A DNA stretch of 64,000 nt, taken from positions 32,560 to 96,559 of the forward strand of contig CAMFCQ010000001.1 in the NCBI GenBank assembly GCA_945948915.1, in the 5' to 3' direction. Position numbers and translations under genes: made by a program. The notes under the pieces were generated by a model. That model did no database searches and had not been told where the DNA came from. It worked only from the letters and a program-made list of their open reading frames with translations. Positions 2,759-56,366 of the stretch are shown here, piece by piece (the first letter of the stretch is position 1; the number at the start of each line of letters is the position of its first letter). Source of the stretch: an uncultured Clostridia bacterium (GTDB lineage Bacteria > Bacillota > Clostridia > Christensenellales > Aristaeellaceae).

Positions 2759-2801
2759 AAGCGCTTTTCCTCCTCAAATTTCTCCGTCTTCCCCGGAACA
2801 A

Positions 2802-4808: not shown

Positions 4809-4968
4809 GTCTTCCTGTTCTTTCCCTTCTGCCTCTGTCCGGGAGCAGATACGGCAGTGATCCTTCACAGCTGCAGGAAATCCCCTTTCCCAACGTCTGC
4901 GATTTTCCTCATTATACATCTAGTGTCACATTTTTGCAACTAATCCGTATGTATTTTTTTAAGTTCTC

Positions 4969-5901
4969 TTAATAACTTGTCGAGTTCGGATAAATAATTC
5001 CATGAATCTTATTGATGCCGTAGGCCGGATCGATGATCAGCTTGGACGTGCCGTCTGAGCTGTCATACTTGAATTCGCCCTCTTCGGGATACGCATACAT
5101 CCGGATATCGGAGATGCCGGTGGTCATCATCTTGGTTGCCAGACCGATGATGTCAAACAGCGACATGTTCGTCGAAACATAGTCAAAGCACGTCGTCGCC
5201 AGAGAGATCATCTGCGGAATCGAGCTGTTGACGACCTCCCGGGCCATGGCCATGAGCAGCTTTCGCTGTCTGGCCTGGCGGCCAAAGTCGTTGTCCAGCT
5301 TGCGGATGCGTGCGTAGGCCAGCGCCTGCGCACCGCAGAGCCTCGCCTCCGTCGCATCGCTGGGGATGCGCTGAATCGGCGTGTCGCCGTAATCGCCGTA
5401 GGACTCCTCCACGGTCGTGTTGATCGCCCAGGGCTCGCTCTCCTCCAGCCGGATGGTCACGCCGCCCATCGTATCCACGATGTCGCAGATGCCGTAGAAG
5501 TTAACGGTCACATAGTTCTCGATGTTCAGGTTGTACGTCCGGTTGATCGTCTGCATCAGCAGGTTCGGTCCGCCGAAGGAATGCGCCGCATTGAGCTTGT
5601 TCTCGTGGCCGTTGTCGCCCATGGTCACCCAGGTATCGCGCGCCAGGGAGATGACGTTGACCACGCCCGTCGTCTGGTTGATCGAGCAGATCATCATCGT
5701 GTCGGCGCGGCCGGATGCCATCTCGTTTTCACGCGTGTCCGTACCGATGAGCAGGATGTTCTTCACATTCTTGTCAAGACCCTCGTACACGCTCAGGTCG
5801 CCATCCTTGACCGGCATGCTGTAATCGCCGAGCGCGCATGCCGGCAGCATCAGCGCCAGAAGCAGCGCGCAGAGCATCGCGCATATCCGTTTATTGACCA
5901 T
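4969..5901 (-). CDS. LCP family (LytR-CpsA-Psr) polymer-to-wall ligase
   Basis: Motifs NILLIGTDTRE....GRADTMMICSIN....ISLARDTWV are present. The N-terminus is a hydrophobic anchor with the lipobox-like sequence LMLPAC. Start moved to ATG 5901, which is preceded by AAGGAGAG; the track start is 5937. Confidence 0.8.
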   Translation of the reverse strand: MVNKRICAMLCALLLALMLPACALGDYSMPVKDGDLSVYEGLDKNVKNILLIGTDTRENEMASGRADTMMICSINQTTGVVNVISLARDTWVTMGDNGHENKLNAAHSFGGPNLLMQTINRTYNLNIENYVTVNFYGICDIVDTMGGVTIRLEESEPWAINTTVEESYGDYGDTPIQRIPSDATEARLCGAQALAYARIRKLDNDFGRQARQRKLLMAMAREVVNSSIPQMISLATTCFDYVSTNMSLFDIIGLATKMMTTGISDIRMYAYPEEGEFKYDSSDGTSKLIIDPAYGINKIHGIIYPNSTSY

Positions 5902-6589
5902 CGTTTGCCCTCTCCTTCTTCTGTGCCCGAAGCGCATCCGTCAGCCGGTTGTTCCTGGGCCATTCCCCGCGGAAGATCTTCTGTGCCTTTTCAAAGTCGT
6001 CATAATCCTCCGGCCTGTGCGCGTCCGAGGCGATATAGGCCGCCATACCTTCCTTGACCAGCTTCCTGGCCGTGCGCCGTTCAGCGCTCATCATGGGCGC
6101 CATCAGGCCGCAGGCATCCACCTGCAGCTCGCACCCCAGGTCGCGCATCTCGCTGGCAATGCCCAGATCGCGCTGAATATAGGCATAGCGCTCCGGATGC
6201 GCGATGATGGGCAGATACCCGGCATCCATCAGCTCGCTGAGGACGGCATCCCAGCGCGGCATCAGCTCGCTGCTGGAAAACTCGATCAGGATACAGCGCG
6301 TGCCGCTCAGACAGAACGCGTTCATCGCCTGCAGGCTGACATCATGGAACGCCCGATAGTTGAATTCGCAGCCCATGTTCAGCCCCAGGCCGAACTCATG
6401 CGCGATGCTCCTGGCGATGCGCAGGCTCCCGCGGTTTCTCTGCTGGTCCTCCGCGCGGTACACATGCGGCGTGGCGACGATGAACGTAATGCCCGCATCC
6501 GCCGCGCGCCCGGCCATATCATGCGCCATCTGCACATTTTTTGCGCCGTCATCCACGCCAGGCAGGATATGCACATGCATATCAATCAT
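5891..6589 (-). CDS. cpsB: PHP-family protein-tyrosine phosphatase of capsule loci (CpsB/YwqE type)
   Basis: N-terminus MIDMHVHILPGVDDGA, later VATPH and SDAH metal-binding motifs. It lies adjacent to a BY-kinase gene. Confidence 0.85.
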   Translation of the reverse strand: MIDMHVHILPGVDDGAKNVQMAHDMAGRAADAGITFIVATPHVYRAEDQQRNRGSLRIARSIAHEFGLGLNMGCEFNYRAFHDVSLQAMNAFCLSGTRCILIEFSSSELMPRWDAVLSELMDAGYLPIIAHPERYAYIQRDLGIASEMRDLGCELQVDACGLMAPMMSAERRTARKLVKEGMAAYIASDAHRPEDYDDFEKAQKIFRGEWPRNNRLTDALRAQKKERANDGQ

Positions 6590-6622
6590 CGCTCATTCTC
6601 CTTGCTGCGCATGTCTTCCCCA

Positions 6623-8062
6623 TCACTCCTCGTCATCCTGCTGCTCCCGGCGGCTGCTCAGGCCGCGGGTGCTGCGGCGCTCATGCTTGTGATGATCGCC
6701 ATATTTGTAGTAGCGGTTGTAGTAGTAGCTCTTCTGCTTGTGATTTACGAAGTTGAACACCAGGCCCAGCAGCTTGCCCTGTACCTGCTCCAGCTGAGCG
6801 AGCACCTTCGTCAGCTCCTTGCGCTCCACGCGGCCGTCCGCCACGACGACGATCGTGCCGTCCGTCTTGGCCGCCAGAGACGCCGCGTCGATAAACATGC
6901 CCAGCGGAGACGTGTCAAAGATCACCAGATCAAAGTACTGCTTACACTCCTCCAGGAAGCGGCCGAAGGACTCCAGATTCGCGTTCACTGCCATGCGGTG
7001 GTTGCTGTCCATGAAAAACAGGTTCGGCGTATTCGTGCGGGTGACCACCTCGGTCAGCTTCGCGCTGCCGTTCAGGTAGTCCATGATGTCCTTGCGGTTG
7101 CGCCGTCCCAGGTACCGGCCGATCATCGGGGAGCGATAGTCCATGTCCGCGATCAGCACGTTCTTGCCCTGGCTGGCCATCTCACAGGCCAGCATCAGGG
7201 AGACGGAGCTCTTGCCCTCCTTGGGCGTGGTGGAGGTGACGGTCAGCGTGCGCAGCGGCTCGCCCATCGCGGCGAACTCGATGTTCAGCGCCAGCTTTTT
7301 GATGCTCTCCTGCGTGTACTCGTTCATGCAGGCGAGGAGGTTGCTCTCTTTGGACAGCTGCTTTTTCAGGAACAGATCCATCTCCTTCTTGTAGCTGTAG
7401 ACATTGGAGAGGATGTTGGTCTTGAAGCGCACGTCCGCGTCGCTTTCAGCGCGCACCTTGGTATTGAGGACCTCCAGACCCACCAGCGCAAACGCCACCA
7501 GCGCCAGCGAAGCGAGCGCCGCCATGGGCACCATGGAGCCGCGGCCGCTGTTGGAGGGCCAGGTCGGCAGCGTCGCCTCGACGGCGACATGGAGGCTGTC
7601 CTGGTTCAGCATGTTGCGGATGTACTCAGAGAACACCTGACCCAGCATGTTGGCGGCCTCCATGCACATCTGCGGGTCGCGGCCCGTCACGCTGATGGTG
7701 ATGAAGCGCGTATCCTGCACGGCGCTGACGCCCACGGACATGCCGCCGGGCCAGCCCGGCCAGCCAAGGCGGCTGCAGGTTTCCTGCAGAACCGCCGGGG
7801 TCTGAATGAGCTCCTTGTAGTCGTTGACGAAGTACGCGCTCGAGGACAGGTCGTAGCGCGTGGTGCCGGTGGAATCGACGTAATCAAACAGCGTATACAG
7901 CTTGACCTGCGCCGTATACACATCCACCGTGTAATTGATGACGTACATATTGGCCAGAACGGCCACGACAATCGGGATGATGACCATCAGATACCATCTG
8001 CGCTTGAGCGCTTTGAGCATGTCACCCAGGGACAGTCCCAGTTCTTCTTCCACAGTATCCAC
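6623..8062 (-). CDS. Fused Wzz-like chain-length modulator + BY tyrosine kinase (CpsC-CpsD in one polypeptide)
   Basis: The N-terminal half has two TM segments flanking an extracytoplasmic domain. The C-terminal half has Walker A (TSTTPKEGKSSVS), Walker A'/B-like motifs (VLIADMD, LVIFDTSP) and a Tyr-rich tail (KSYYYNRYYKYG). Confidence 0.8.
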   Translation of the reverse strand: MDTVEEELGLSLGDMLKALKRRWYLMVIIPIVVAVLANMYVINYTVDVYTAQVKLYTLFDYVDSTGTTRYDLSSSAYFVNDYKELIQTPAVLQETCSRLGWPGWPGGMSVGVSAVQDTRFITISVTGRDPQMCMEAANMLGQVFSEYIRNMLNQDSLHVAVEATLPTWPSNSGRGSMVPMAALASLALVAFALVGLEVLNTKVRAESDADVRFKTNILSNVYSYKKEMDLFLKKQLSKESNLLACMNEYTQESIKKLALNIEFAAMGEPLRTLTVTSTTPKEGKSSVSLMLACEMASQGKNVLIADMDYRSPMIGRYLGRRNRKDIMDYLNGSAKLTEVVTRTNTPNLFFMDSNHRMAVNANLESFGRFLEECKQYFDLVIFDTSPLGMFIDAASLAAKTDGTIVVVADGRVERKELTKVLAQLEQVQGKLLGLVFNFVNHKQKSYYYNRYYKYGDHHKHERRSTRGLSSRREQQDDEE

Positions 8063-8107
8063 TCTCCTTTGGTTCAGTTGAATTGCATTGACGTTGTGAC
8101 AAGGCGG

Positions 8108-11100
8108 TTAGTTGATGAGCTTCATGCTCAGGTCGTACTTTTTCTCCCACAGGAGGTTGCCGCGTTCGTCATACTCGCGCTCGATGCGGTTGACGCCGTC
8201 CTTGTCGGCCGCGCCCCAGCCGTTCGCGCCGTAGTACGTGATCTTGACCACATTGCTGTTGCTGTCGTATCCGTAGGCGATTTCACAGTAGCCGTCCGTG
8301 CTGTTCACCTTGGTCTTCAGATCGGCCATGTAGCAGGCCTCGGAGACCACGCGGTCCATCATGTCGCGCGTGTAGCGCTTGGCCTGATAGCCCTTGCTTG
8401 TGGTGACAGGATTGCCCTCCGCGTCCTGATAGTACTCCTCCAGCACGCGGTCAAAGCCGTCGTACACATAGGCGATGCGTGTGTAGCCCTCGCTGGTCAC
8501 GATCTCCTGTCCGTTGCTGTCCTCGTACGTCCTGGTCGCAGGCACGCTGACATCATCGCTGTCGTACGTCATGCGCGCCTGCGCGGCGCCGCTGTACGCC
8601 TGCGTCGGATTGCCATTGGCGTCCAGATACCGCTCCAGCACAGCGCGGCTGAACATATCGACCTGGATTTCCTTCGCCTCATAGCCCTCGCTGCACTTGA
8701 CCGGCGTGCCGTCGTTCAGGTAATACGCCTGATAGATGACCGCACCGTTGGCGTCATAGTCCTGCTCGAGCACTTCATATCCTTCCTCGTTGCGCACCGG
8801 CTGACCGAACTGGTCGTAATACCGGATCTCCACCGGCAGTCCGCGCCAGTCGCACACATAGGACGCGCTGGCGTAGCCCGCCAGGATCTTGACCGGGTTG
8901 CCGTCGCCGTCCAGATAGGTTTCGCCCGTCAGGCAGCCGTTCACGTCGTACTGCGCTGTGCGCGCCGCATAGCCGTAGGTGGTCATGTACAGCCCGCCGT
9001 CCGCCGCCAGGAATGCCTCGCGGATCACGTTGCCATTTTCATCGAACTCGCGCTCCATCGCCGCCGCGCCGATCTCGTTGCGGCCGGGCACGCCGTCGGA
9101 TTCGTAATACTCCATGCGCACCAGGTTGCCAAGTGCATCGTAGGTGTACTTCTGAATGGCGTACATGCGGCCATAGTCGCAGACCTCGCCCTTCTCGTTG
9201 TACGCGCGGCGCTCGGTGATGTTGCCCGCCGCGTCGTAGGTAAAGGTCTGCCGGGCGTAGCCGTAGTTGCTGATGAAGAACTCGCCGTCCGGATTGTAAT
9301 AGCACTCTTCGATCTTGTTGTCGTTCTCGTCGTAGGCATAGGTCACGCGCGCATAGCGTCCGCTGCCGAACGTCGGCTCCCCTTCCGCATTCAGGTTGGT
9401 GATGGAGGTGCGGTTGCCGCGCTCATCGTACGTCATGCGCTGGCCGCTGTATCCCCAGGGCGAAACGACAATCTGCCCGTCCAGGCCGTAGTACCAGAAC
9501 TCGATCAGGTTGTCCCGCTCGTCATAGGTGTAGCGCACGCTCGCCGCCATGCCCGAGCGCGTGATCTGCTGACCGTCTTCACCGACAAACGCCTCATAGA
9601 TCCGGTTGCCGCGCTCGTCATATTCATAGATCAGCGCTGCAAAGCCGCCCACGGTCACGGGATTGTTCTGCTCGTCGTAGTAGGACACGCGGGTCGCGTA
9701 GCCGTTTTCGTCGCGCTCATAGAGGATGTACGCGCAGCCGTTCGGTCCGTTCATCAGTCCGTACCAGGGATTGAGGTACGCCTCGCGGACCAGATTGCCG
9801 CTTTCATCGTAGGTGTGCTCAAGGATCGCGTAGCCCTGGCTGGTGATCATCAGGCTGCCGGTTTCATCATAATAGCGCGTCTGCGTCGTGTTGCCCCAGG
9901 CGTCATAGCTGTACTCGATCGCCGCATAGCCCGCCTTGATGCGCGTGGCCTGGCCGTCCGCGCCGGCAAAGGAGCGGCGCAGCAGGCGGCCCGCGTCGTC
10001 GTAAACCATGTGCATGGACGCATAGCCCAGCGATGTGCGGATCGGATTGCCGTTCAGATCGAAATACGCCACCAGATTCTGCCTGCGCATGCTGTCATAG
10101 CCAAAGCGGATGATCGAATAATCCCCGCTGCCGCGCATCGGATTGCCGTCCTGATCAAGGTACGCCTGCTCGATGAGCATGCCGTCGTCCGAGCTCGTGG
10201 TGCGGATCATCCATGCGCCGTCGGTCTGGCGGCACAGCTCGCCCAGGCGGTTATACACCCGCTTCCACTGGATCAGGCCGTCGTCCGACCAGTCCACCTC
10301 AATCCAGGCATAGCCCGCAGAGATGTTGACCGGCTGACCGGCTGCATCCAGATAGCGCTGCAGGGTCTGCCTGTTCTTCTCATCAAAGGCGAACTCGATC
10401 TGCGCATATCCGTCGCTGATCATCACCGGCTCGTGCGCGCGGTTCAGATAGGTGATGCGCGTCACGTTGCGCGCTGCGTCGTAGCCGTAGCGGATGGCGG
10501 CATAGCCCGCCTTCAGCATGACCGGCTGCTCAAACTCGTCGTAAAACGCTTCCAGGCTCTTGTTTCCGGCCTCGTCGTACGCATAGCCGACGGCCGCATA
10601 GCCGCCGCTGAGGCACACCGGCCGGCCGTCTTCGCCCAGATATCGCTCATAGACCAGCTGGTCAAGCTCATTATAGCGGTATTCCAGCGACGCGTAGCCG
10701 TCCGCAATGCCGGTCAGCTGATTGTCCGTATCCAGATAACGCAGCGCGATGAGAAGGTTATGCGCGTCATAGTCTCGCTCAAGCGCCGCATAGCCGTCCG
10801 GGATGCGCACCAGATTGCCCCAGCCGTCGCCGTAGGCCTCGCGCGTCACATTGCCATGCTCGTCATAGGCGAACATCTTTTCGGCATAGCAGCCGGAAAG
10901 CAGCTTCATGCCGCCGTCCGTGCCATAGTACGTCTCGCGTGTGACCCGGCTGAGCGTGTCGTATTCGTAGCCGATAGCCGCGTAGCCGCTGGAAGTCAGC
11001 ACAAGCTGATCCTGCGGATCCAGATAGCTCATGCGCGTCACGCGGCTGAACACATCGTACTGCACCGCGATCTTCGCATAGCCCATCAGCGTCGTCACCG

Positions 11101-14100
11101 GGCTGCCCTCTGCGTCGTAATAGGTCGTCAGCGTCACACGTCCGCGCGTGTCGTATTCGTAGCCCATCGCCGCATAGCCGCCGCCGCACGTGTACGGCAC
11201 GCCAGAGGCGCTGATGTACGTCTCGCGGATCAGGCGGCTGTACGCATCGTACACCAGATCCACGCCCGCGTAGCCGCGCAGGCAGTTGGTCATCTGCCCC
11301 GCCTTGTCCAGATACCGCACGGCGGTCTGCTGCCCGCGCGCGTCGTAGCTGAACGCAACGCTCGCATATCCTTCGGCGTGCATCGCCGGCAGGCCGTCCG
11401 CATCCAGATAGCTCACCCGAGTGACATTGAGCCGCTCATCATAGGTGTAGGAAACCATCGCGTAGCCGCTGAGCATCATCGGCTGGCCGTCCACGCCCAG
11501 GTACTGCTCGGTGAGCACCTTGCCCTGCGCGCTGTACGTCCTGCGCATACCGGCATAGCCGGAGCTGCCCGCGCAGCGTTCCCCGTTTTCATCCAGGTAA
11601 CTGATCTCGGTGCAGTTGCCCGCCGCGTCATAGGCGTATTCGCACTGCGCATAGCCCATGGACTTGACCATCACCGGCCGGCTGTCCGCGTCCAGATAGG
11701 ACTCTCTCGTCAGCCTGCCCTGTCCGTCGTAGGTATACCGCACGCCGGCGTAGCCCTCGCTCGTCATTGCCGGCTGCCCGTCGAGGCCCACATACGTCAT
11801 GCTCGCCAGGTATCCGCCCGCGGCATAGGTCACATCCACGCCCGCCGCACCGGAGGCGTTCAGCGCCAGGCTGCCGTCCGCGCCGTAGTAGCGCTCACTC
11901 ACCTTTCGGCGCTGCGCATCATAGCCGTAGCTGACCGCCGCATAGCCGTCCGCCGTCACGCTCAGCTGCCCGTATGCATTGGTATAGGACACGCTCAGCA
12001 GGTTGCCCACGCCGTCATAGACATAGCTCTTGGCCGCGTAGCCCGCCTTGTTGTCGCACAGACTGCCCGCCGCGTCATAATACCGCTCATTCAGCGTCCT
12101 GCCCAGCGCGTCATATTCGATGCCGACGGAGGCATAGCCGCCGCTGGTGAGAATCGCCTCGCCCGCCGCGTTCATGTAGGTCTGCCTCGTCACGCGTCCC
12201 AGCCGGTCATAACTCATCAGCCGCTGGGCGTAGCCCTCCAGCGTGTCCACGCATACACCCGCCGCATCGACGTACTGCTCCAGCAGCACATTGCCGTAGC
12301 TGTCGTAGGTGTAGACCACCGCCGCGTAGCCGCTGAGCTGGTAGAACGGCTCGCCGTTCACATCGACATAGCCCATCTGCGTCAGCCTGCCCAGCCGGTC
12401 ATAGACCGTGTTCACGCCCGCATAGCCGGAGCGGCATACCGTCGGCGCGCCGTTCACGTCCAGATAGCGCACGGTGAGCTGCCTGCCCAGCGCGTCATAG
12501 GTGTATTCCTCGCTGGCGTAGCCGTCCGTGCAGAAGGCCGTCTGATCCTCGCCGTTCAGGAAATCCTTTCGGATCAGGTTCTGCTTCGTGTCATAGGTGT
12601 AGCGCACCGCCGCGTAGCCGTCAGACAGCTGCACCGGCACGCCCGCCGCGCTCATGTACCGCTCATAGGTCAGCTTGCCCGCAGGGCTGTATGCCTGCTC
12701 GACATAGGCATAGCCCTCTGAGCCGGTCGTCAGCTGGCCGTTTGCATCCAGATAGCGTGTGGAGGTTTTGCGGCCCAGGTTGTCATAGGTGTATTCCACC
12801 TGTGCAAAGCCGCCGGTGCCGGTCATCATCTGCCCGTTCGCATCCAGATACGTCTCGCGGATCACGCGGTCCAAGCTGTCGTAGGTGTACGTCAGCGCCG
12901 CATAGCCGCCCGCGGAGATCATCGGCTGGCCGCTGGCGTCCACATAGGTGGTGCCCAGCAGATTGCCGCGCGTGTCGTAGGCCATGTTTGCGCCGGCTGC
13001 GCCTATGGCCGAAATCGTCAGGCTGCCGGACGCGTCGTAATACCGCTCGGCAATCAGCCTGCCGCGCGCATCGTAGGTATAGGACGCCATGGCGTAGCCG
13101 TCCGGCGTCACGCAGCGCTGGCCGTTTTCATCCAGGTATTCTATCTGCGTGCAGTTGCCGTCCGCATCAAACGTCCGGTTCACCGACGCATAGCCGCCGG
13201 CCATCATGCGCAGCGCGCCGTCCGTACCGTAATAGCGCTCCTGCGTGCAGTTGCCGTCCCCGTCATAGGTGAAGCTGACGGCGGCATAGCCCGCGCTGCC
13301 TTCGCAGAGCTGAGCGTCCGCACCGTAAAAGCTCTGCTGTGTAATCCGATCCTCCTTGTCGTAGGCCACCGTCACACACGCGTAACCTTCAGAGCCCACA
13401 GTCAGGCCGCCGTAGCCGTCCTCATAGGCCGTCTGAATCAGCCTGTCCTCCTCGTCATAGGCGAAGGAGACCGCGCAGTAGCCTTCCGCGCCCGGCGTAG
13501 GATCGCCCTGCACATCCAGATACGCCGTGCGAATCAGGCGCTCGTCCTCGTCGTAGTCCTCGCGAACCTGCGCATAGCCCATACCGGTGAGCACCAGCTC
13601 GCCCTGCGCATTCATGTACTGCGTGGAGACGATGTTGCCGTTGTCGTCAAGCTCATAGCGGCACATCGCGTAGCCGTCCGCGTTCACGATGCTCTGTCCC
13701 TGCGCGTCCAGATACCGCTCCTCGGTCACCTCGCCGTGTGCGTTGTAGCTGTACGCCACAGCTTCATAGCCGGCTTTTGTCGCTGTCGCCTGGCCGTTTT
13801 CATCGAACCAGGAAATGCCGCTGACATTGCCCATCGCGTCGTACGCGTATTTGGCCTGCGCATAGCCCTCGCTGCCGCAGACCGGGCTGCCCTCAAGATC
13901 CAGCAGCGTCGCCGTTGCCATGAGACCCACATCGTTGTAGGTATAAGCCGTGGAGGCGCCGCCGTTTTTGCCGAAGGTCGCCTGGCCGTCCTCATCGTAG
14001 TAGCTTTCCTTCAGGACGTTGCCGCGCACATCGTTTTCAAAGCTGCGCGACGCGTAGCCCTCCGCGCTGCGGATCGGCTCTCCGTCCTTGCCGAAGTAAG

Positions 14101-17017
14101 ACTCGCGCACAACGAGGTTCTGACCGTCGTATTCATAGGCCTTCTCGCTGAATCCCTCGTCTGTCAGCACGCGCTCGCCGCCCGCGTCGAGGTAGCGCTC
14201 GCGGGTCACGTTGCCCATCGAATCATAGTCACGCTCGACCGCTGCATAGCCGCCCTCCAGCTCGATGGGATTCCCATCGGCATCCAGATACGTCTCCCGC
14301 AGCACCTTGCCGCCCGTGCCGTTGATGCGCACGACCACCGCGTAACCGTCGTCGCACATCACGGTTTCGCCGTTCAGGCCCAGAAACGTCATCCGGCAGA
14401 CCGCGCCATAGTCGTCGTATTCGTAAGCCACCGCCGCGTAGCCGTCCTCGCAGAGGATGGGCTGGCCGCTTTCGTCGAGATAGCTGTCCTTTACCTTTTT
14501 GTCGGTGCGCTCGTCATACGCGTAGGCGATCGAGGCATAGCCCTGCTCCACCACAGTCGTTTGCCCATCCGCCCCCAGGAAGGTGTCCATCACCTTGCTG
14601 CCGGTGCGGTCGTCATAGGCGGAAACCACCGCCGCATAGCCCTCGCCCTTCAGCTCCGCCATCTGATCATCCGCATTCAGGTATTCCGTGCGCGTCAGGC
14701 GGCGCCTGCCGTCATAGGTGTATTGAATAGAAGCGTAGCCTGCATCCAGCTCATACGGCTTTCCGTCCGCATCCAGGTAATTGACGCGGGTATTCTGCCT
14801 GAACTGATCATATTCATAGGTGACCTGCGTGTAGCCTTCTTCCGTCCTGGCAGGCTCGCCGTCAGCGTTCACCTGCACGCTGGAGACGACATTGCCGTAT
14901 ACATCGTAGGTGTTTCGCGTGCCTGCATTGCCGCGGGAGACCTCCTGCACCTCGCCGTACACGTTGTAATAGGTCGAGGAAAGCATGTTGCCGCGCTGAT
15001 CGTAGGTGTAGCTGGCAGACGCATAGCCGCCGCTGCCCAGCACCGCGTTGCCGTTCAGATCGTAAAACGCTTCAGAAAGCGTCTTGCCCTGCAGGTTCTC
15101 ATACGTCACGCGCACGGCGTAGCCGTCCGAGGACATCACAGGATTGCCGTCCATGTCGCAGAAGGTGGCCGTGATGGTTTCGCCCAGCACGTCGCGCTCG
15201 TATTCGTACTGAATCTGCGCATAGCCGGCCGGCAGCGTCATGTGCTCGCCGTCCGCATTGCAGTACCACTCGCGAATCACGTTGCGCATCGCATCGTATT
15301 CGCACTCGGTGTAGGCCGCGCCGCCGCCGCTGACGATCAGCGTCCCGTCGACGTCGTAGCTCTGCGTGCTCACCTCGTCGCCGAACACCGTATTGGTCTT
15401 CACCGTTTTGAACACGCCGTCATTGTTGCGCACGGGGTTTCCGTTCTCGTCGTAGTACGCCTCGCCCGCGTCAAAGCCGTTCTCGTCGTAGCTGCGGCGC
15501 ACCTCCTGGTAGCCGTCGTTGCTCAGCGCGCCGTTGTCTTCCGTGTCAAAGTACTGCTCGCTGATGACCTGGTTCTCCGCAGAGTAATCCATGGTCTTGT
15601 AGCTGTAGCCGTTGCTGGTAATCATCGGCTTGCCGTTCTCATCGAGGTAGTTCTCGCGGATCACGTTGTCCAGATCGTCGTACTCGTAGCTGATCTGCGC
15701 GCAGCCCTCCTTGATTGCGTAAACCGCGTGGCCTTTCGGATCCTTGAACTCCTTGAGAACGAGGATGCGCTTGTATTTCTGCGGGATCAGCTCGTAGGTG
15801 TACTCGATGCGGCTGTAGCCGCCCGCGGCAATCACCTCGTCGCCGTTCTCGTCGTAGTAAATCTCCTTGGAGAGGTATTTCTTGTTCTCGTAGATATACT
15901 CCACCGATGCATAGCCCTTGTCCGGCATCATCATCAGCTTGTTGTTCGTGTCGTAATAGCGCTCATAGCCCTGCTGTTCATGCATGGTATAGGCCGTCTT
16001 GTAGCGCCAGTAGCCCGCTGCGCAGGCAACGGGGTCGCCGTTCATGTCGTAGTAGCGCGTTTCGATCATGCGGTCGTTGGCATCGTAATCATACTCCACG
16101 CGCGCATAGCCCTTGCTGCAGTTCACCCGCTCCCCGTTCGCGTCGTAGTACTCCTCGCTGATGGGCTGTGCGGCCGGGCGGTCATCCTTTCTGTCGTAGG
16201 TCTTCACCATGCGCGCATAGCCGTCGCTCATGTTGATGAGCGCATCGCTCTCGTCGAAGTACGCGATCTCGGTGATGCGGTCAAAACCGTCCATCTTGAC
16301 CTCATAGCGCGCATAGCCGGCGCTCTCCACATAGACCTGATTGCCATCGGTGTCATAGTAGACTTCCTTGACCAGCTGCTTGCGCTTGTACTCGCGCTCC
16401 ACATACGCCCAGCCCTCTTCGCACAGGGCATAATTGCCGTATTCGTCAAAGTATTCCACCTTGGTGGTGTAGCCCGTCTCGGTATCGATGGTGTTGACCA
16501 TCTGTGCCCAGTAGCCGCGCTGCTTGCAGAGTCTGCCCTCCGTGTCGTAGTAGCTGACCGACTTGAGGTGCACGCCCTGATAGGTGCGCTTCTGCTCCGC
16601 GTAGCCGTTTTCACACAGCACCAGATTGCCGTCCAGATCCTTATAGCGCTCCTCCAGGAACCATCCGAAGCCGGACCACTTGTATTCGATGGTCGCATAA
16701 CCGTACGCCGTGTTCACATGGTTGCCGTTCACGTCGTGGAAGGTTGTGCGGATGCGCGCCGGATGCCGGTTGTATTCGTGCTCGGCATAGCAGTAGAGCA
16801 TGTCGTCCGCCATCACCGGATTGCCGTTCCGGTCAACGAACGTCTCCTTTGTGTACAGGCCGTGCCGGTTCTTGACGCGTTCCACCTCCAGGCTGGTCGA
16901 TGTTTCCGCCAGCGCGGGCACAGCCGCAGCCGCCAGAGCCACGCCCAGCAGCACCGGCGCAGTCATGCCCGCCAGCCGACGCAAAAAACAAGCCTTTGTC
17001 AGGTTTCGAAGATCCAT
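8108..17017 (-). CDS. Giant secreted protein (2,969 aa) made of tandem ~36-38-aa YD-like repeats; function unknown
   Basis: Sec-type signal peptide (...GVALAAAAVPALA/ETS). From residue ~45 to the last residue there are degenerate repeats with approximate consensus GYA-x-h-x-Y-x-YD-x-x-G-x(6)-Y-h-D-x-x-G-x-P. Length divided by period suggests roughly 70-80 units; this was not counted exactly. I see no catalytic, toxin, LPXTG, SLH or choline-binding module. Confidence 0.85.
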   Translation of the reverse strand: MDLRNLTKACFLRRLAGMTAPVLLGVALAAAAVPALAETSTSLEVERVKNRHGLYTKETFVDRNGNPVMADDMLYCYAEHEYNRHPARIRTTFHDVNGNHVNTAYGYATIEYKWSGFGWFLEERYKDLDGNLVLCENGYAEQKRTYQGVHLKSVSYYDTEGRLCKQRGYWAQMVNTIDTETGYTTKVEYFDEYGNYALCEEGWAYVEREYKRKQLVKEVYYDTDGNQVYVESAGYARYEVKMDGFDRITEIAYFDESDALINMSDGYARMVKTYDRKDDRPAAQPISEEYYDANGERVNCSKGYARVEYDYDANDRMIETRYYDMNGDPVACAAGYWRYKTAYTMHEQQGYERYYDTNNKLMMMPDKGYASVEYIYENKKYLSKEIYYDENGDEVIAAGGYSRIEYTYELIPQKYKRILVLKEFKDPKGHAVYAIKEGCAQISYEYDDLDNVIRENYLDENGKPMITSNGYSYKTMDYSAENQVISEQYFDTEDNGALSNDGYQEVRRSYDENGFDAGEAYYDENGNPVRNNDGVFKTVKTNTVFGDEVSTQSYDVDGTLIVSGGGAAYTECEYDAMRNVIREWYCNADGEHMTLPAGYAQIQYEYERDVLGETITATFCDMDGNPVMSSDGYAVRVTYENLQGKTLSEAFYDLNGNAVLGSGGYASASYTYDQRGNMLSSTYYNVYGEVQEVSRGNAGTRNTYDVYGNVVSSVQVNADGEPARTEEGYTQVTYEYDQFRQNTRVNYLDADGKPYELDAGYASIQYTYDGRRRLTRTEYLNADDQMAELKGEGYAAVVSAYDDRTGSKVMDTFLGADGQTTVVEQGYASIAYAYDERTDKKVKDSYLDESGQPILCEDGYAAVAYEYDDYGAVCRMTFLGLNGETVMCDDGYAVVVRINGTGGKVLRETYLDADGNPIELEGGYAAVERDYDSMGNVTRERYLDAGGERVLTDEGFSEKAYEYDGQNLVVRESYFGKDGEPIRSAEGYASRSFENDVRGNVLKESYYDEDGQATFGKNGGASTAYTYNDVGLMATATLLDLEGSPVCGSEGYAQAKYAYDAMGNVSGISWFDENGQATATKAGYEAVAYSYNAHGEVTEERYLDAQGQSIVNADGYAMCRYELDDNGNIVSTQYMNAQGELVLTGMGYAQVREDYDEDERLIRTAYLDVQGDPTPGAEGYCAVSFAYDEEDRLIQTAYEDGYGGLTVGSEGYACVTVAYDKEDRITQQSFYGADAQLCEGSAGYAAVSFTYDGDGNCTQERYYGTDGALRMMAGGYASVNRTFDADGNCTQIEYLDENGQRCVTPDGYAMASYTYDARGRLIAERYYDASGSLTISAIGAAGANMAYDTRGNLLGTTYVDASGQPMISAGGYAALTYTYDSLDRVIRETYLDANGQMMTGTGGFAQVEYTYDNLGRKTSTRYLDANGQLTTGSEGYAYVEQAYSPAGKLTYERYMSAAGVPVQLSDGYAAVRYTYDTKQNLIRKDFLNGEDQTAFCTDGYASEEYTYDALGRQLTVRYLDVNGAPTVCRSGYAGVNTVYDRLGRLTQMGYVDVNGEPFYQLSGYAAVVYTYDSYGNVLLEQYVDAAGVCVDTLEGYAQRLMSYDRLGRVTRQTYMNAAGEAILTSGGYASVGIEYDALGRTLNERYYDAAGSLCDNKAGYAAKSYVYDGVGNLLSVSYTNAYGQLSVTADGYAAVSYGYDAQRRKVSERYYGADGSLALNASGAAGVDVTYAAGGYLASMTYVGLDGQPAMTSEGYAGVRYTYDGQGRLTRESYLDADSRPVMVKSMGYAQCEYAYDAAGNCTEISYLDENGERCAGSSGYAGMRRTYSAQGKVLTEQYLGVDGQPMMLSGYAMVSYTYDERLNVTRVSYLDADGLPAMHAEGYASVAFSYDARGQQTAVRYLDKAGQMTNCLRGYAGVDLVYDAYSRLIRETYISASGVPYTCGGGYAAMGYEYDTRGRVTLTTYYDAEGSPVTTLMGYAKIAVQYDVFSRVTRMSYLDPQDQLVLTSSGYAAIGYEYDTLSRVTRETYYGTDGGMKLLSGCYAEKMFAYDEHGNVTREAYGDGWGNLVRIPDGYAALERDYDAHNLLIALRYLDTDNQLTGIADGYASLEYRYNELDQLVYERYLGEDGRPVCLSGGYAAVGYAYDEAGNKSLEAFYDEFEQPVMLKAGYAAIRYGYDAARNVTRITYLNRAHEPVMISDGYAQIEFAFDEKNRQTLQRYLDAAGQPVNISAGYAWIEVDWSDDGLIQWKRVYNRLGELCRQTDGAWMIRTTSSDDGMLIEQAYLDQDGNPMRGSGDYSIIRFGYDSMRRQNLVAYFDLNGNPIRTSLGYASMHMVYDDAGRLLRRSFAGADGQATRIKAGYAAIEYSYDAWGNTTQTRYYDETGSLMITSQGYAILEHTYDESGNLVREAYLNPWYGLMNGPNGCAYILYERDENGYATRVSYYDEQNNPVTVGGFAALIYEYDERGNRIYEAFVGEDGQQITRSGMAASVRYTYDERDNLIEFWYYGLDGQIVVSPWGYSGQRMTYDERGNRTSITNLNAEGEPTFGSGRYARVTYAYDENDNKIEECYYNPDGEFFISNYGYARQTFTYDAAGNITERRAYNEKGEVCDYGRMYAIQKYTYDALGNLVRMEYYESDGVPGRNEIGAAAMEREFDENGNVIREAFLAADGGLYMTTYGYAARTAQYDVNGCLTGETYLDGDGNPVKILAGYASASYVCDWRGLPVEIRYYDQFGQPVRNEEGYEVLEQDYDANGAVIYQAYYLNDGTPVKCSEGYEAKEIQVDMFSRAVLERYLDANGNPTQAYSGAAQARMTYDSDDVSVPATRTYEDSNGQEIVTSEGYTRIAYVYDGFDRVLEEYYQDAEGNPVTTSKGYQAKRYTRDMMDRVVSEACYMADLKTKVNSTDGYCEIAYGYDSNSNVVKITYYGANGWGAADKDGVNRIEREYDERGNLLWEKKYDLSMKLIN

Positions 17018-17115
17018 GTATTGTACACCTCAAACAATCGCGCAGGTTGTCCCGTGTTTCTGTAACGATTTCGCAATGAATTACCCATATAATATTTCAT
17101 ATGGCTATTCACTTT

Positions 17116-17144
17116 ATTATATCACAGTGCCAATCACGATTCAA
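17116..17144 (-). promoter_or_regulatory. Sigma-A type promoter of the giant repeat gene / EPS operon
   Basis: Reverse strand reads TTGAAT (17144-17139), a 17-nt spacer, then TATAAT (17121-17116). It sits ~95 nt upstream of the start codon in an AT-rich patch. Confidence 0.6.
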
Positions 17145-17145
17145 C

Positions 17146-17183
17146 AAAAAATCCCTTTCTGTCATCAGATGACAAAAAGGGAT
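17146..17183 (-). terminator. Intrinsic terminator after the S24/S26 peptidase gene
   Basis: Reverse strand has TCCCTTTTTGTCAT-CTG-ATGACAGAAAGGGA (13 bp, 1 mismatch) followed by TTTTTTG, 7 nt after the stop codon. Confidence 0.8.
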
Positions 17184-17189
17184 CACAAA

Positions 17190-17651
17190 TCAGCGGATAA
17201 AATGTGCATATGCCTGGGCAATCAGCGGGCGAAGCGGGATGAGCTTTGTCCATACGCGCGCAAAGAACGTCCACCAGAAATCCCCGGGCTCGATGAGCCT
17301 GCCCTTGCGCCTGACGCGCGTGATGATCGCAAAGATCTGATCTCGGCGCACGCCGCGCTCGATTTCCGTCTGCGCGTCGCCGATGATGTCGTAGACCTCA
17401 CCGCGCGCGCGCAGGATGCGGTGCATGACGTATTGCCCATTGTCCCGCTGGTAAAACACGATATCGCCTGCGCGCAGCGGGCGATCCGGCTTCCGGAAAT
17501 AAATCGTATCGCGCAGGTGGATGAGGAACGGACTCATGCTGCTGCCCGAGACCAGCATGCTGACCTCGTGCCCCTCCTCCACCAGACCGCGCAGCACACC
17601 GACGTATTCCGCCGTATTGACCCGCCGCACAGCTGGCTTCTTCTGTTCCAT
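17190..17651 (-). CDS. S24/S26-family serine peptidase, Ser/His (SipW/ER-like) type, without an N-terminal membrane anchor
   Basis: SGSSMSPFL provides the nucleophile Ser, GDIVFY the beta-strand, and YVMHRIL a His where bacterial type I SPases have Lys. The N-terminus (MEQKKPAVRRVNTAEYVG) is not hydrophobic. ATG 17651 lies 2 nt after the stop of the upstream gene; the track start is 17687. Confidence 0.65.
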   Translation of the reverse strand: MEQKKPAVRRVNTAEYVGVLRGLVEEGHEVSMLVSGSSMSPFLIHLRDTIYFRKPDRPLRAGDIVFYQRDNGQYVMHRILRARGEVYDIIGDAQTEIERGVRRDQIFAIITRVRRKGRLIEPGDFWWTFFARVWTKLIPLRPLIAQAYAHFIR

Positions 17652-17653
17652 CG

Positions 17654-18523
17654 TCACTTCGCCTTTCTGAGCTCGTTTTCCAGACACGCGACCGCTTCCT
17701 CCGAGATCGTGCAGCTCAAATGGTAGACCGGCACCTGCGTAGCCAGCTGCTCAATCAGGTCCATCGCCCGCCGCTGCGCGTCCCGGTTCCAGAAATTGAC
17801 GGTGATCTGGCTGTAAATCTGCGTAAACGCCGCAAACGGCTCAAGCCGGCTGACGGTGTTTTCCTTGCCCTGACTGAGCATCACGATTGCGCGGATGGGC
17901 ATGGCCTCGTCATGGCACACGCCCGAGGAGCCGCACACCGGCCAGCCGCCTGCCGTCCACACGCCGTCCACCGCGCGCAGCAGCCCCCTGTCGCCGTTGA
18001 CGACGCGCGTGCCGCGGTGCTTCTCCCAGAGCGTCGCCTGCGTCGTCTTGCCCGTGCCGCTGGGCGCGGAAAAGAGGATCGCCTTCCCTTCCCATTCCAT
18101 GTAGGCGCAGTGCAGCACAAGGGCGTCCCTGCGCATCATGTGCCGCTCCATGGCGAACATCGCCAGAAACATGGGATCCGGCCATGTCGCGCCGGCTGCC
18201 GCGCTGACCATCAGGATCGTCGCGCGGCAAGCGTCCTCCTCGCGGTAGCAGGCGTAAAACCCGGGCGTGCCCATCACGCCGATATAGCGCATCTCCAGCC
18301 CATCCTGCTCAAACACCGCCAGATCGGGCCGCTGCGCAATCAATCTGCCGCGCGGCTGGGGGAAGCTGTCTGTCAGCTCCAGCGTATAGGTATAGGAAGG
18401 CTCGCCCGCGTCCCGGGCAAACAGCATGAAGTTCTCCGGCGGCGTCACGCTGTCCGGGCAAATCAGCCGAAAACAGAAATCCCCGATTGCAAATGTCCTG
18501 TCCACGGCGCGCACCTCCTGCAT
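17654..18523 (-). CDS. Uncharacterised P-loop protein resembling the HPr-kinase C-terminal domain (HprK-like)
   Basis: 289 aa. Walker A is FSAPSGTGKTTQATLW, followed by VVNGDRGLL. The N-terminal half has no motifs I recognise. An alternative start is GVG-free GTG 18505, 8 nt after AGGAGG. The family call is tentative. Confidence 0.45.
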   Translation of the reverse strand: MQEVRAVDRTFAIGDFCFRLICPDSVTPPENFMLFARDAGEPSYTYTLELTDSFPQPRGRLIAQRPDLAVFEQDGLEMRYIGVMGTPGFYACYREEDACRATILMVSAAAGATWPDPMFLAMFAMERHMMRRDALVLHCAYMEWEGKAILFSAPSGTGKTTQATLWEKHRGTRVVNGDRGLLRAVDGVWTAGGWPVCGSSGVCHDEAMPIRAIVMLSQGKENTVSRLEPFAAFTQIYSQITVNFWNRDAQRRAMDLIEQLATQVPVYHLSCTISEEAVACLENELRKAK

Positions 18524-18585: not shown

Positions 18586-19797
18586 TCATGCTTCCTCGTC
18601 CAGCAGCGCCGCCGCGCCCGGGAGCATCGCGATGCTGCGCCCCAGCACGCCGTGCATCAGCGCGATGGCCACCCCGTAGTTGACCACGGGCACGCCCGCC
18701 TGTTTGGCGCGCGCGACGCGCGTCTTCATCACCTGCTCGGTGAGCATGCAGCCGCCGCAGTGCACGATGAGCGCATAGCCGCTCAGATCCTCCGGGAACT
18801 CATTGCCCGAGCAGAACGCAAACGCCGGCTTCTTTCCCGTATAGCCCTCGATCCAGCGCGGGAGCTTCACGCTGCCGATGTCGTTGCACTGGCGGTGATG
18901 CGTGCAGCCCTCGGCGATGAGCACCCTGTCGCCGTCCCGCAGACGCCTCAGCGCCGCCGCACCGCGCAGCTGTGTCTCAAGACCGCCCTTGTAGCGGGCC
19001 ATGAGGATCGAAAACGACGTGAGCGCGATCTCCTCCGGCACGTCCTCTGATACCTGGCCAAACGCCTGCGAGTCTGTGATCACCAGCTTCGGCTTCACCG
19101 CCAGCATATTGAGCGTCGCGCTGACCTCCGTGTCCTGGCAGACGACGGCCGTCATGTGGTGATCCAGCAGCTCGCGCAGCGTCTGCTGCTGGGGCAGAAT
19201 CAGCCGGCCCTTGGGCGCGGCCTCGTCCACCGGCACGACCAGCAGCGCCAGATCCCCGGGCGAAAGCAGGTCCGCGACAATACAGCGTTCCTGCTTCATC
19301 GGGCCGGCCAGGCGGCCGAGCATCTCCTTGAGCGCATGCACACCCTCGCCCGTCTCCGCGCTGACGTACAGCTCGTTTTCGGAAAGCGGCGTGCGCTCGC
19401 CCAGCAGGTCGCACTTGCTGAAGCAGACGATGTGCGGCAGCTTCCGCTCCTCAAAGATCGCTCGCAGCGCGCGGTCCTCCTCGCGCATGCCCGCTTCTCC
19501 GTCCACCACCAGCACGGCGATGTTCACCGTATCCAGCGTCTGACGTGCGCGCGCGGCGCGCATCTCGCCCAGCTTGCCCTCGTCATCCAGGCCGGGCGTG
19601 TCGATGATGACCACCGGCCCCAGCGGCAGCAGCTCCATCGCCTTCTTGACCGGATCGGTCGTCGTACCCTTCACCTCGGAGACCAGCGACAGCGCCTGTC
19701 CGGTCACCGCATTGACGAGGCTCGATTTGCCCGCATTGCGCATGCCGAAAAAGCCGATGTGCAGCCGCTCAGAAGACGGAACATGGGTCAGGCTCAT
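18586..19797 (-). CDS. hydF: [FeFe]-hydrogenase H-cluster maturation GTPase HydF
   Basis: N-terminal GTPase motifs (GMRNAGKSSLVNA, DTPGLDD, SKCD). C-terminal Cys motifs are CTHH and HCGGC. It is adjacent to hydG and hydE. Confidence 0.9.
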   Translation of the reverse strand: MSLTHVPSSERLHIGFFGMRNAGKSSLVNAVTGQALSLVSEVKGTTTDPVKKAMELLPLGPVVIIDTPGLDDEGKLGEMRAARARQTLDTVNIAVLVVDGEAGMREEDRALRAIFEERKLPHIVCFSKCDLLGERTPLSENELYVSAETGEGVHALKEMLGRLAGPMKQERCIVADLLSPGDLALLVVPVDEAAPKGRLILPQQQTLRELLDHHMTAVVCQDTEVSATLNMLAVKPKLVITDSQAFGQVSEDVPEEIALTSFSILMARYKGGLETQLRGAAALRRLRDGDRVLIAEGCTHHRQCNDIGSVKLPRWIEGYTGKKPAFAFCSGNEFPEDLSGYALIVHCGGCMLTEQVMKTRVARAKQAGVPVVNYGVAIALMHGVLGRSIAMLPGAAALLDEEA

Positions 19798-19809
19798 GTT
19801 GATTCCTCC

Positions 19810-21258
19810 TTAGAATCTGAAGTCGCGACGGTTGGAGCTGCGGATCGCCTCGATGTTCTCCCTGGCAATCGCGCGCACCTTGTCCTTGGGAATGCGCGCA
19901 AGCTCCCGCTCGATCATCTCAAAGCCGACCTTCTTCGTCTCCTCGCTCGCATAGTCCGTCAGAAACTCGGTCAGCGTCATCAGCGCGTTGGGATGGCAGC
20001 AGTTGAGAATCTGGCCGCTCTTGCACAGGCTCATGAACCGGTCGCCCGTGCGGCCCTCGCGGTAGCAGGCCGTGCAGAAGGACGGCACATGGCCGTTTTC
20101 CATCAGCCAGCGCACCACCTCATCCAGCGAGCGCTGATCGGAGACGTCGAACTGCTCCGTGTCGTGCGGGCGCTCCGCCTCAGCGTAGCCGCCCACGCTC
20201 GTGCGGGACGCGCCGCTGACCTGGGACACGCCCAGGTGAAGCAGCCTGCCGCGCACCTCCTCGCTCTCGCGGGTGGAGACGATGATGCCGGTGTACGGCA
20301 CGGCCAGGCGGATGCAGGCGGTGATCTTCTCAAAGATCTCGTCGGAGATACCGTTGTCGAACTGATCCGGATCGATGTCCGACGCGCGCTTGAGCCGCGG
20401 CACGCTGATGGTGTGCGGGCCGACGCCGTGCACGGCCTCCAGGTGCTCCGCGTGCATGATGAGCCCGGCGAACTCGTACTTGTACAGCTCCAGGCCGAAG
20501 AGCACGCCCAGGCCCACGTCGTCGATGCCGCCCTCCATGGCGCGGTCCATCGCCTCGGTGTGGTAGTCGTAGTCGTGCTTGGGGCCGGTGGGATGCAGCT
20601 GCAGGTAGCTTTCCTTGTGGTACGTCTCCTGGAAGAGGATGTAGGTGCCGATGCCCGCGTCCTTGAGTTTGCGGTAGTTTTCCACCGTCGTCGCGGCGAT
20701 GTTCACGTTCACGCGGCGGATCGCGCCGTTTTTGTGGTTGACGGAGTAGATCGTTTTGATGCACTCCAGGATGTACTCGATCGGGTTGTTCTTCGGGTCC
20801 TCGCCCGCCTCGATCGCCAGGCGCTTGTGGCCCATGTCCTGCAGCGCGATGACTTCCTTCCTGACCTCCTCCTGCGTCAGCTTGCGGCGCGGGATGGTCT
20901 TGTTCTTCATGTGGTACGGGCAGTAGACGCAGCCGTTCACGCAGTAATTGGACAGGTACAGCGGCGCGAAGATGACGATGCGGTTGCCGTAGAACGCCTG
21001 CTTGATCTCGCCCGCGATCTCGTAGATTTTCTGCACCTTTTCAGGGATCTCGCAGGCCAGCAGCACGCTCGCCTCCCGGTGCGTCAGGCCCGCGCAGGTG
21101 CAGCCGGTCGCCGTCTTCCTCGGGCGCGCCTTTTCAAGGATCGCGTCGATCAGCTCGACGTTGTTCTTGTTCGCCTCGGCGTAAGCCAGCGTCTCGCGGA
21201 TCTCGCCGTCGTTGATGAATTCCTCCGCATGGAGGGACTTGGGATTGTAGCTTGCCAT
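19810..21258 (-). CDS. hydG: [FeFe]-hydrogenase maturase HydG (radical SAM, tyrosine lyase)
   Basis: 482 aa with radical-SAM motif CVNGCVYCPY and the C-terminal auxiliary cluster motif CTACYREGRTGDRFMSLCKSGQILNCCHPN. Confidence 0.9.
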   Translation of the reverse strand: MASYNPKSLHAEEFINDGEIRETLAYAEANKNNVELIDAILEKARPRKTATGCTCAGLTHREASVLLACEIPEKVQKIYEIAGEIKQAFYGNRIVIFAPLYLSNYCVNGCVYCPYHMKNKTIPRRKLTQEEVRKEVIALQDMGHKRLAIEAGEDPKNNPIEYILECIKTIYSVNHKNGAIRRVNVNIAATTVENYRKLKDAGIGTYILFQETYHKESYLQLHPTGPKHDYDYHTEAMDRAMEGGIDDVGLGVLFGLELYKYEFAGLIMHAEHLEAVHGVGPHTISVPRLKRASDIDPDQFDNGISDEIFEKITACIRLAVPYTGIIVSTRESEEVRGRLLHLGVSQVSGASRTSVGGYAEAERPHDTEQFDVSDQRSLDEVVRWLMENGHVPSFCTACYREGRTGDRFMSLCKSGQILNCCHPNALMTLTEFLTDYASEETKKVGFEMIERELARIPKDKVRAIARENIEAIRSSNRRDFRF

Positions 21259-46171: not shown

Positions 46172-46248
46172 GGATTGATAGCTCAGTCGGTTAGAGCACC
46201 CGCCTGATAAGCGGGAGGTCGGTGGTTCGAGTCCACTTCAATCCACCA
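46172..46248 (+). tRNA. tRNA-Ile (anticodon GAT), CCA encoded
   Basis: Cloverleaf folded by hand. The acceptor stem is GGATTGA/TCAATCC, the anticodon arm is CCCGC-CTGATAA-GCGGG, and the T arm is GGTGG-TTCGAGT-CCACT. Confidence 0.9.
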
Positions 46249-46251
46249 TAT

Positions 46252-46326
<75 letters not shown>

Positions 46327-56198: not shown

Positions 56199-56222
56199 CG
56201 CTTTCTTCCAAGAACAATAGAC

Positions 56223-56263: not shown

Positions 56264-56274
56264 CTTTAGCAAAC

Positions 56275-56304: not shown

Positions 56305-56366
56305 TATGTATCCATTTTGGGCTTTGTTGTCAAATGAGAAAGGAGACTTCCAAGATGATACCATTA

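Follow-up and report, generated by a model that had tools for sequence, protein, structure and literature searches.

A giant secreted protein of 32-residue YD-type repeats encoded at the head of a capsule/exopolysaccharide locus in an uncultured Clostridia bacterium

Why does a 9-kb gene for a secreted protein made of repeats stand at the head of a set of bacterial polysaccharide genes? The locus that raises this question lies in a 64,000-nt stretch of DNA from an uncultured Clostridia bacterium (assembly GCA_945948915.1, contig CAMFCQ010000001.1, forward-strand positions 32,560 to 96,559; the whole stretch is called the window below), in which an initial annotation, made from the letters alone, had pointed out a giant all-repeat protein encoded as the first gene of an exopolysaccharide (EPS) operon. 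The answer that we tentatively favour, at a probability slightly short of even and on the grounds of gene context, is that the giant protein is an extracellular structural ribbon of the capsule/EPS layer, which binds, tethers or organises the glycopolymer.

The open reading frame (ORF) and its length were reproduced on the minus strand, and the gene has the following parts:

8108 to 17017, minus strand: coding sequence of the giant secreted all-repeat protein, 2,969 aa.
16904 to 17017, minus strand: signal peptide, residues 1-38, MDLRNLTKACFLRRLAG-MTAPVLLGVALAAAAVPALA followed by ETS; the sole hydrophobic window of the protein.
8150 to 16870, minus strand: array of ~91 diverged 32-aa expanded YD repeats, seen by repeat hidden Markov model (HMM), autocorrelation, RHS_repeat matches and AlphaFold2.

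The N-terminus has the make-up of a Sec-type signal, with a charged n-region, the hydrophobic stretch MTAPVLLGVALAAAAVPALA, a likely cleavage site between ALA and ETS near residue 38 and, right after the signal peptide, the cap motif E-T/L-S-T-S/N-L. The mature protein, as computed from its sequence, has a mass of ~328 kDa, a pI of 4.4 and a tyrosine content of 11.1%. As the initial annotation had stated, the signal peptide is followed by repeats only: the single hydrophobic segment is N-terminal, and the repeats begin at about residue 50 and continue into the last residues, with no non-repeat C-terminal domain and with neither a tip nor a ligand-binding domain distinct from the repeats. Its further statement that the protein lacks an Rhs core or tip motif, a toxin with an immunity gene and an anchor was borne out by searches that all came back empty, namely regular expressions for P....DP.GL (PxxxxDPxGL), DP.GL and an LPXTG-type motif, a Pfam scan for SLH and CW_binding (choline-binding) domains, and a comparison with NCBIfam that returned zero matches at E≤1 and hence no Rhs-associated core (TIGR03696) and no TIGR01643 YD_repeat_2x. 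An exact look-up of the giant protein and of the four orthologs described below in a protein collection gave no match either.

The annotation had put the repeat at 36-38 aa and had divided it into two alternating half-units, and on both counts it needs correcting. Residue autocorrelation reached 0.27 at lag 32 compared with a background of ~0.06 (a harmonic lies at 64, and lesser peaks lie at 12 and 20) and the distance from one GYA to the following GYA was exactly 32 in 30 of 55 intervals, which sets the period at 32 aa; the unit consists of one YD hairpin and an 11-residue connector. An HMM built from the units, with the consensus GYAAVEYTYDARGNVTRERYLDADGQPVMTSx, found ~90 copies between residues 50 and 2956, and the 32-residue periodicity is strict over residues 1051-1787. 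The units are old and diverged: pairwise identity among the 91 units averages 26% with a maximum of 59%, adjacent units are no more similar than remote ones, and Tandem Repeats Finder detected just one repeat in the DNA (96 nt, 2.1 copies). With units this divergent, a single DNA repeat and orthologs that agree, a recent repeat expansion or an assembly artefact is ruled out.

Full-length orthologs were found in four metagenome-assembled genomes by a scan of the GTDB species genomes (two carry the label Candidatus Ventricola sp., the other two Clostridia or Clostridiales bacterium), with best-segment tblastn identities of 85-86%. The ORF is intact in all five of these Candidatus Ventricola-like genomes, synteny of the ortholog loci is complete over the whole segment between the hydrogenase maturase genes and the EPS genes, both included, whole-alignment pairwise identity is 85-88% and dN/dS is 0.17-0.25; the giant gene is therefore real and under purifying selection, and not an artefact. 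The only sizeable length differences among the five genomes are two exact 32-aa unit insertions or deletions in the ortholog locus L010, the one other difference being a single-residue gap. L010 carries the two extra units at protein alignment columns 1252-1283 and 1778-1809. Array length thus shifts by whole units and the remainder stays collinear; the C-terminus is conserved and shows no polymorphism. Two long plus-strand ORFs that face the giant gene and cpsCD, at 5894-12721 (2,275 aa) and 13736-17065 (1,109 aa), were rejected as genes since their ends vary between orthologs; they exist because the giant gene is nearly devoid of TTA, CTA and TCA codons (0, 0 and 1 of 2,970).

The initial annotation had likened the repeats to the YD/Rhs type and had at the same time recognised no characterised family; the likeness is supported by HMM and predicted fold, and the second statement was too strong. 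At 61.6 bits the whole giant protein lies above the gathering cutoff (22) of Pfam RHS_repeat (PF05593) and so belongs to a recognisable, known repeat class, and six of ten slices of 297 aa pass the same threshold alone (34-52 bits), RHS_repeat being undetected by the slice scan in the N-terminal 890 aa and in the last 296 aa. Sequence kinship to the canonical Rhs repeat is real but remote, since a profile of the repeat slices found a sole match among PDB sequences, the Rhs effector Tse5 (E 7.6e-4); phmmer with the whole protein found none. Given 16 in-phase, non-overlapping slices of the giant protein and its homologues as input, AlphaFold2 modelled residues 1051-1434 (384 aa) with a predicted local distance difference test score (pLDDT) of 96.1 and a predicted template modelling score (pTM) of 0.84. 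In this model the two strands of a unit occupy positions 4-9 and 15-21, with a YDxxG turn between them; a DxxG turn and the 11-residue connector follow the second strand, so that each 32-aa unit is modelled as one YD β-hairpin plus an insertion. Foldseek placed only YD shells of the Rhs, Tc, teneurin and SGS1 kind at the top of its PDB matches (E 2.5e-15 to 1e-8, TM-scores ≤0.40). A model of 1,152 aa (36 units), the longest made and covering 39% of the protein, had a pLDDT of 91.1 but a pTM of 0.41, and it matched Rhs shells with E down to 1.9e-36 at TM-scores (TMq/TMt) of 0.2-0.3 and a root-mean-square deviation (rmsd) of 33-36 Å. The low TM-scores, the high rmsd and the pTM of the long model argue against a canonical cage; judged by pTM and TM-scores, the giant protein is predicted to be an open, coiled YD β-ribbon that does not close into the canonical cocoon.

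The RHS_repeat matches and a Foldseek list led by effectors of the type VI secretion system (T6SS) and Tc toxins would be expected of an Rhs-type polymorphic toxin or toxin container, that is, a cage around a toxic domain. This reading of the giant protein is essentially excluded, because the core, the toxin and the immunity gene are missing and the global fit is poor: the searches above detected neither a TIGR03696 core nor a PxxxxDPxGL or DPxGL motif, the C-terminal end consists of repeats like the rest, cpsC/D and not an immunity gene comes next, the period is 32 and not ~21, superposition on cages is poor (rmsd ~35 Å) and the orthologs lack C-terminal polymorphism.

What the giant protein shares with the Rhs/YD shells (RhsA 7q97, Tse5 8cp6, TcB-TcC 4igl and 4o9x, Bacillus subtilis WapA and teneurin) is the building block, the YDxxG/DxxG hairpin repeat and the antiparallel hairpin ribbon predicted from it locally; it lacks most hallmarks of the Rhs toxin cage. 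In contrast to the shells, its unit is 32 aa (hairpin and connector) where the canonical unit is ~20-22 aa, its ~91 units stand alone without an N-terminal plug, a core/aspartyl protease motif, a C-terminal toxin or an immunity gene, a closed shape is not predicted for it, and it is Sec-secreted in a monoderm from a capsule operon, not from beside T6SS, type VII secretion system or Tc genes. To our knowledge, the characterised YD/Rhs repeat proteins are all closed shells, and in the bacterial toxins (Rhs and Tc) the shell packages a toxic domain. Elongated single β-sheets made of tandem hairpins are also known from MORN/MORN_2 (YwqK-type) proteins and from engineered OspA. MORN_2 (PF07661) matched weakly in a relative, P0002, and in one slice of the giant protein (18.3 bits compared with a cutoff of 29.6), but the whole giant protein gave no match at E≤1 and the repeat lengths and motifs differ; engineered OspA was among the Foldseek matches to the 384-aa model with a TM-score of ~0.2. 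Long, aromatic-rich β-hairpin arrays in secreted Firmicutes proteins are shared with the clostridial CROP and choline-binding (CW_binding_1) repeat domains, which bind carbohydrates or wall polymers. The CROPs of TcsL stood low in the Foldseek list (probability 0.8, E 4e-6 compared with 2.5e-15 for Rhs shells), and, unlike CW_binding_1 proteins with their GWxxxxGxWYYF pattern, the giant protein reads GYA...YxYDxxG and gives no match to that HMM.

The signals around the giant gene and the genes that follow it are:

17150 to 17184, minus strand: intrinsic terminator of the upstream S24-like gene, a 16-bp stem then a T-run; stem kept in four orthologous loci.
17116 to 17144, minus strand: sigma-70-type promoter with the hexamers TTGAAT and TATAAT 17 nt apart and an extended -10 TG; 10 of the 12 hexamer positions agree with the consensus.
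17026 to 17031, minus strand: ribosome-binding site GAGGTG, 8 nt before the ATG, read from the sequence and kept in orthologs.
8063 to 8107, minus strand: 45-nt intergenic gap, in which the ribosome-binding site AAAGGAGA lies at 8072-8079; both the gap length and this site kept in five genomes.
6623 to 8062, minus strand: fused CpsC (Wzz, polysaccharide copolymerase) and CpsD (bacterial tyrosine (BY) autokinase); Pfam Wzz and AAA_31, TIGR01007 at 129 bits compared with a cutoff of 108.
5891 to 6589, minus strand: CpsB-type PHP tyrosine phosphatase; Pfam CpsB_CapC, E 1.5e-42.
4969 to 5937, minus strand: LytR-CpsA-Psr (LCP) glycopolymer transferase; Pfam E 1e-35, TIGR00350 at 105.8 bits.
973 to 4919, minus strand: block of polysaccharide synthesis genes, downstream in the operon.
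2802 to 4919, minus strand: CapD-like 4,6-dehydratase.
2078 to 2758, minus strand: priming phosphoglycosyl transferase.
973 to 2106, minus strand: GT4 glycosyltransferase.

The near-consensus promoter and the strong upstream terminator that had been reported were located and found conserved in the four orthologous loci, the hexamers TTGAAT and TATAAT being invariant in five genomes. The terminator isolates the transcription unit of the giant gene from the upstream gene, and the 5' leader is ~95 nt long with GAGGTG at its end. At the other side, the 45-nt gap is as bare as described: it has no hairpin and no T-tract, folds at only -3.1 kcal/mol and leads to the GTG start of the Wzz-tyrosine kinase fusion, which implies read-through into this gene, so that the giant gene would be co-transcribed with the EPS genes. 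Typing of the downstream genes by Pfam and NCBIfam as those of a Wzy-type EPS/capsular polysaccharide system agrees with the earlier placement of the giant gene as first in an EPS operon. At the ortholog locus L010 the operon goes on with an EpsG-type polymerase and two further glycosyltransferases; neither a flippase (within the sequence examined) nor an oligosaccharyltransferase of the Wzy_C/PglL type was seen in the locus. Read from its genes, with the EpsG polymerase taken from L010, the neighbourhood is a Gram-positive capsule/EPS locus of the Wzx/Wzy type, all on one strand. Its order recalls the streptococcal-type cpsABCD module, with a CpsC/CpsD fusion, CpsB and an LCP protein (CpsA-like) followed by priming transferase, glycosyltransferases and polymerase, and differs from it in having a 9-kb YD-repeat gene as the first cistron. 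We know of no described cps or eps locus in which such a gene comes first or separates cpsCD from the LCP gene, and our literature searches gave no account of a YD-repeat protein in a capsule/EPS locus, of the 32-aa repeat class or of fusions of nSTAND and YD modules.

The giant protein belongs to a large family. A word-indexed search returned 52 homologues, none more than 30% identical to it, and when 1.84 billion cluster representatives were searched exhaustively with a profile, 2,950 matched at E≤1e-30 and 5,526 matched at E≤1e-10. Members consist of long arrays with the unit pattern GYAxxxYxYDxxGxxxxxxYxDxxGxP, a pattern that the giant protein shares; with its 2,969 aa it ranks with the longest members retrieved. 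By N-terminal architecture, ~150 of 189 retrieved sequences have transmembrane segments ahead of the array, 19 consist, like the giant protein, of a signal peptide and the array only, 9 have soluble N-terminal domains and 11 are fragments or unclassifiable. In the signal-peptide subtype the cap A-E-[LT]-S-T-[NS]-L stands right after the cleavage site, as seen in an alignment of the giant protein with 12 relatives. In other bacteria the array is also fused to TIR domains (P0010, P0013, P0018, P0042, P0046 and P0048), to nSTAND1 together with a C-terminal PDZ domain (P0011, P0014, P0015 and P0021) and to a kinase domain (P0043), which suggests that the ribbon is also a sensor or scaffold module in conflict-type proteins. 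Just upstream of one relative, the 2,098-aa giant P0001, lies a gene for a secreted mini-paralog of 243 aa and ~3 units (L003:2181-2912).

A survey of the neighbourhoods of relatives at ~20 loci showed that the link to polysaccharide genes is recurrent though not universal. Genes for CpsB, CpsCD, LCP, glycosyltransferases or sugar-nucleotide enzymes adjoin the giant gene in ~12 of the ~20 loci, relatives in other lineages among them:

L006 and L031: Wzz-CpsD, giant, LCP.
L003 to L005: giant, PG_binding_1 protein, CpsD-like, second giant, LCP.
L007: Wzz-CpsD then giant, with a further giant (P0012) 4 kb away and a GGDEF/HD regulator (cyclic di-GMP) directly upstream of P0012.
L026: CpsD fragment, CpsB, giant.
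L037: CpsB then giant.
L029: giant then LCP.
L035: sugar nucleotidyltransferase then giant.
L021: LCP, giant, CapA-like.
L018: giant within a cluster of GT2, GT4, epimerase and aminotransferase genes.
L020: giant leading a cluster of epimerase, glycosyltransferase, DegT and FdtA genes.

The WzzD protein of the window is only 24-27% identical to those of several of these linked loci, and the membrane-anchored members of the Lachnospiraceae type form a separate subfamily; at least three distinct lineages or subfamilies therefore show the association. In the signal-peptide subfamilies of P0001 and P0002, a gene for a PG_binding_1 protein of ~350-380 aa directly follows the giant gene (L004:9058-10209, L005:6329-7480 and L008:7645-8688), and the proteins of the two subfamilies are 28% identical to each other. 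This neighbour may be a wall-tethering partner; no PG_binding_1 gene adjoins the giant gene in the window.

Both the family and the survey bear on what the ribbon might do at the cell surface. It could be a surface fibril or adhesin, regulated together with the capsule but not belonging to it, that projects through or past the capsule and binds host mucus, dietary glycans or other cells. Many Gram-positive adhesins are giant, acidic, secreted repeat proteins of this kind, most family members are anchored in the membrane at their N-terminus and presumably carry the array outside the cell, and some relatives adjoin glycoside hydrolases or have no EPS genes nearby. However, the giant protein has no wall or membrane anchor and, with repeats to its last residue, no tip or ligand-binding domain, and the adjacency of the family is tight, recurrent and specific to cpsB, cpsCD and LCP genes, which makes an adhesin unlikely, if still a credible competitor. 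A protective envelope coat, acting alongside the capsule as a barrier or decoy towards phages or immunity and not binding the capsule, would also be co-produced with the polysaccharide, and both the related arrays in TIR and STAND conflict-type proteins and the surface positions that differ between orthologs would suit it. We hold it to be very unlikely nonetheless, given a dN/dS of ~0.2 without overall diversifying selection and a giant protein devoid of lattice-forming or anchoring domains.

The most constant neighbour in the survey is the LCP gene (in the window and at L003, L006, L021, L029 and L031). LCP-mediated glycosylation of a protein is known for Actinomyces oris GspA, and on this precedent the ribbon might be the core of a glycoprotein or proteoglycan, an acceptor loaded with the polymer of the operon by the LCP enzyme or another transferase. 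Peptidoglycan is, however, the usual target of LCP enzymes, the locus shows no oligosaccharyltransferase and no glycosylation sequon could be defined in the ribbon; the probability we give to such a core is accordingly small. Similarly improbable, in our estimation, is a ribbon that forms an integral part of the machine for capsule assembly and attachment, either as an LCP-loaded, proteoglycan-like core or as a coiled track or sheath that guides or measures the nascent polymer through the thick wall together with the Wzz/BY-kinase. If it were true, it would add a new protein component to Gram-positive capsule biogenesis and provide the first non-cage, non-toxin function of YD repeats in bacteria.

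A structural ribbon of the capsule/EPS layer, the reading that we favour, would work as follows. The giant protein, very acidic and 328 kDa in mass, would leave the cell by Sec as a single uninterrupted array, the units of which would stack into a continuous antiparallel β-sheet ribbon, locally the same wall material as that of the Rhs, Tc and teneurin shells. The ribbon lacks a plug, an Rhs core/aspartyl protease and a cargo toxin and would stay open. Transcription of the giant gene would start at its own promoter and run on into the other genes of the Wzx/Wzy-type capsule/EPS operon that it heads, and the ribbon would therefore be made together with the polysaccharide. Embedded as a fibre in the capsule/EPS layer, it would bind, tether or organise the glycopolymer of the operon, which the LCP enzyme would attach to the wall. 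The anatomy of the protein, its repeat class, its predicted local fold, the purifying selection, the operon position and the recurrent neighbourhood are the observations from which this proposal starts; co-transcription, the open global shape, polysaccharide binding and a scaffold function are what we infer from them.

Several points weigh against this proposal. No polysaccharide genes stand beside the giant gene in ~8 of the ~20 surveyed loci:

L001, L002 and L030; L016 and L017; L024; L027 and L039: no such neighbours.
L008 and L009: PG_binding_1 as the sole neighbour of note.
L022: ambiguous neighbourhood.

At L001 the giant gene (P0007) has a GGDEF gene ~4 kb upstream. The WzzD proteins of several linked loci are 57-60% identical to one another, and these loci therefore come from related organisms and are not fully independent. 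The array also occurs on cytoplasmic TIR, nSTAND1-PDZ and kinase proteins and would thus be a generic scaffold and not a dedicated lectin, and the role of the conserved tyrosines may be purely structural, as ladders of a single-layer sheet. The open shape of the ribbon is predicted from pTM and TM-scores, no retention mechanism is visible in the giant protein, and the putative tie of the ribbon to a polysaccharide is drawn from gene context.

Further features of the window lie outside the argument. Directly upstream of the giant gene, beyond the terminator, is a gene for a 165-aa S24/S26-like peptidase with a GSSMSP motif (17190-17687, minus strand), which has no membrane segment, matches PDB 4me8 at E 0.036 and is syntenic in the four orthologous loci. 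A role for it as a SipW-like dedicated signal peptidase was not supported, as it scored 21 bits compared with a cutoff of 52 (archaeal-type signal peptidase I), has no membrane segment and is separated by the terminator. The next gene upstream encodes 289 aa (17654-18523, minus strand) with a weak match to ScmC/HprK-related kinase A and is homologous to a ScmC-like gene at L006:7368-8072 (29% identity, E 1e-18), where the latter belongs to a cassette of small-peptide, PqqD and radical-SAM genes that immediately precedes Wzz-CpsD, giant and LCP; a ScmC-like gene may be a second recurring neighbour of the giant gene. Farther upstream, at 18586-21258 (minus strand), HydF and a radical-SAM/BATS protein (HydE/G-like [FeFe]-hydrogenase maturases) are encoded; their identity to the orthologs is 85-99.8%, and they fit an anaerobic Clostridia host. 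Elsewhere in the window, positions 56001-58000 have a GC content of 0.455 compared with ~0.61 in the remainder and may be foreign DNA, and two adjoining tRNA genes (46172-46323, plus strand) gave the sole Rfam matches.

Overall, the giant protein and its family of at least ~3,000 sequence clusters suggest that the YD hairpin, stretched to 32 residues, has been put to use as an open and very long ribbon that is secreted, membrane-anchored or fused to TIR or STAND modules. The family is large and unstudied and is repeatedly, though not universally, tied to envelope polysaccharide machinery. Gut Clostridia shape the surface ecology of the gut and their envelopes are almost unstudied; the recurrent place of these genes in the cpsB-cpsCD-LCP module of such bacteria points to a previously unrecognised protein partner of their capsule/EPS layers.

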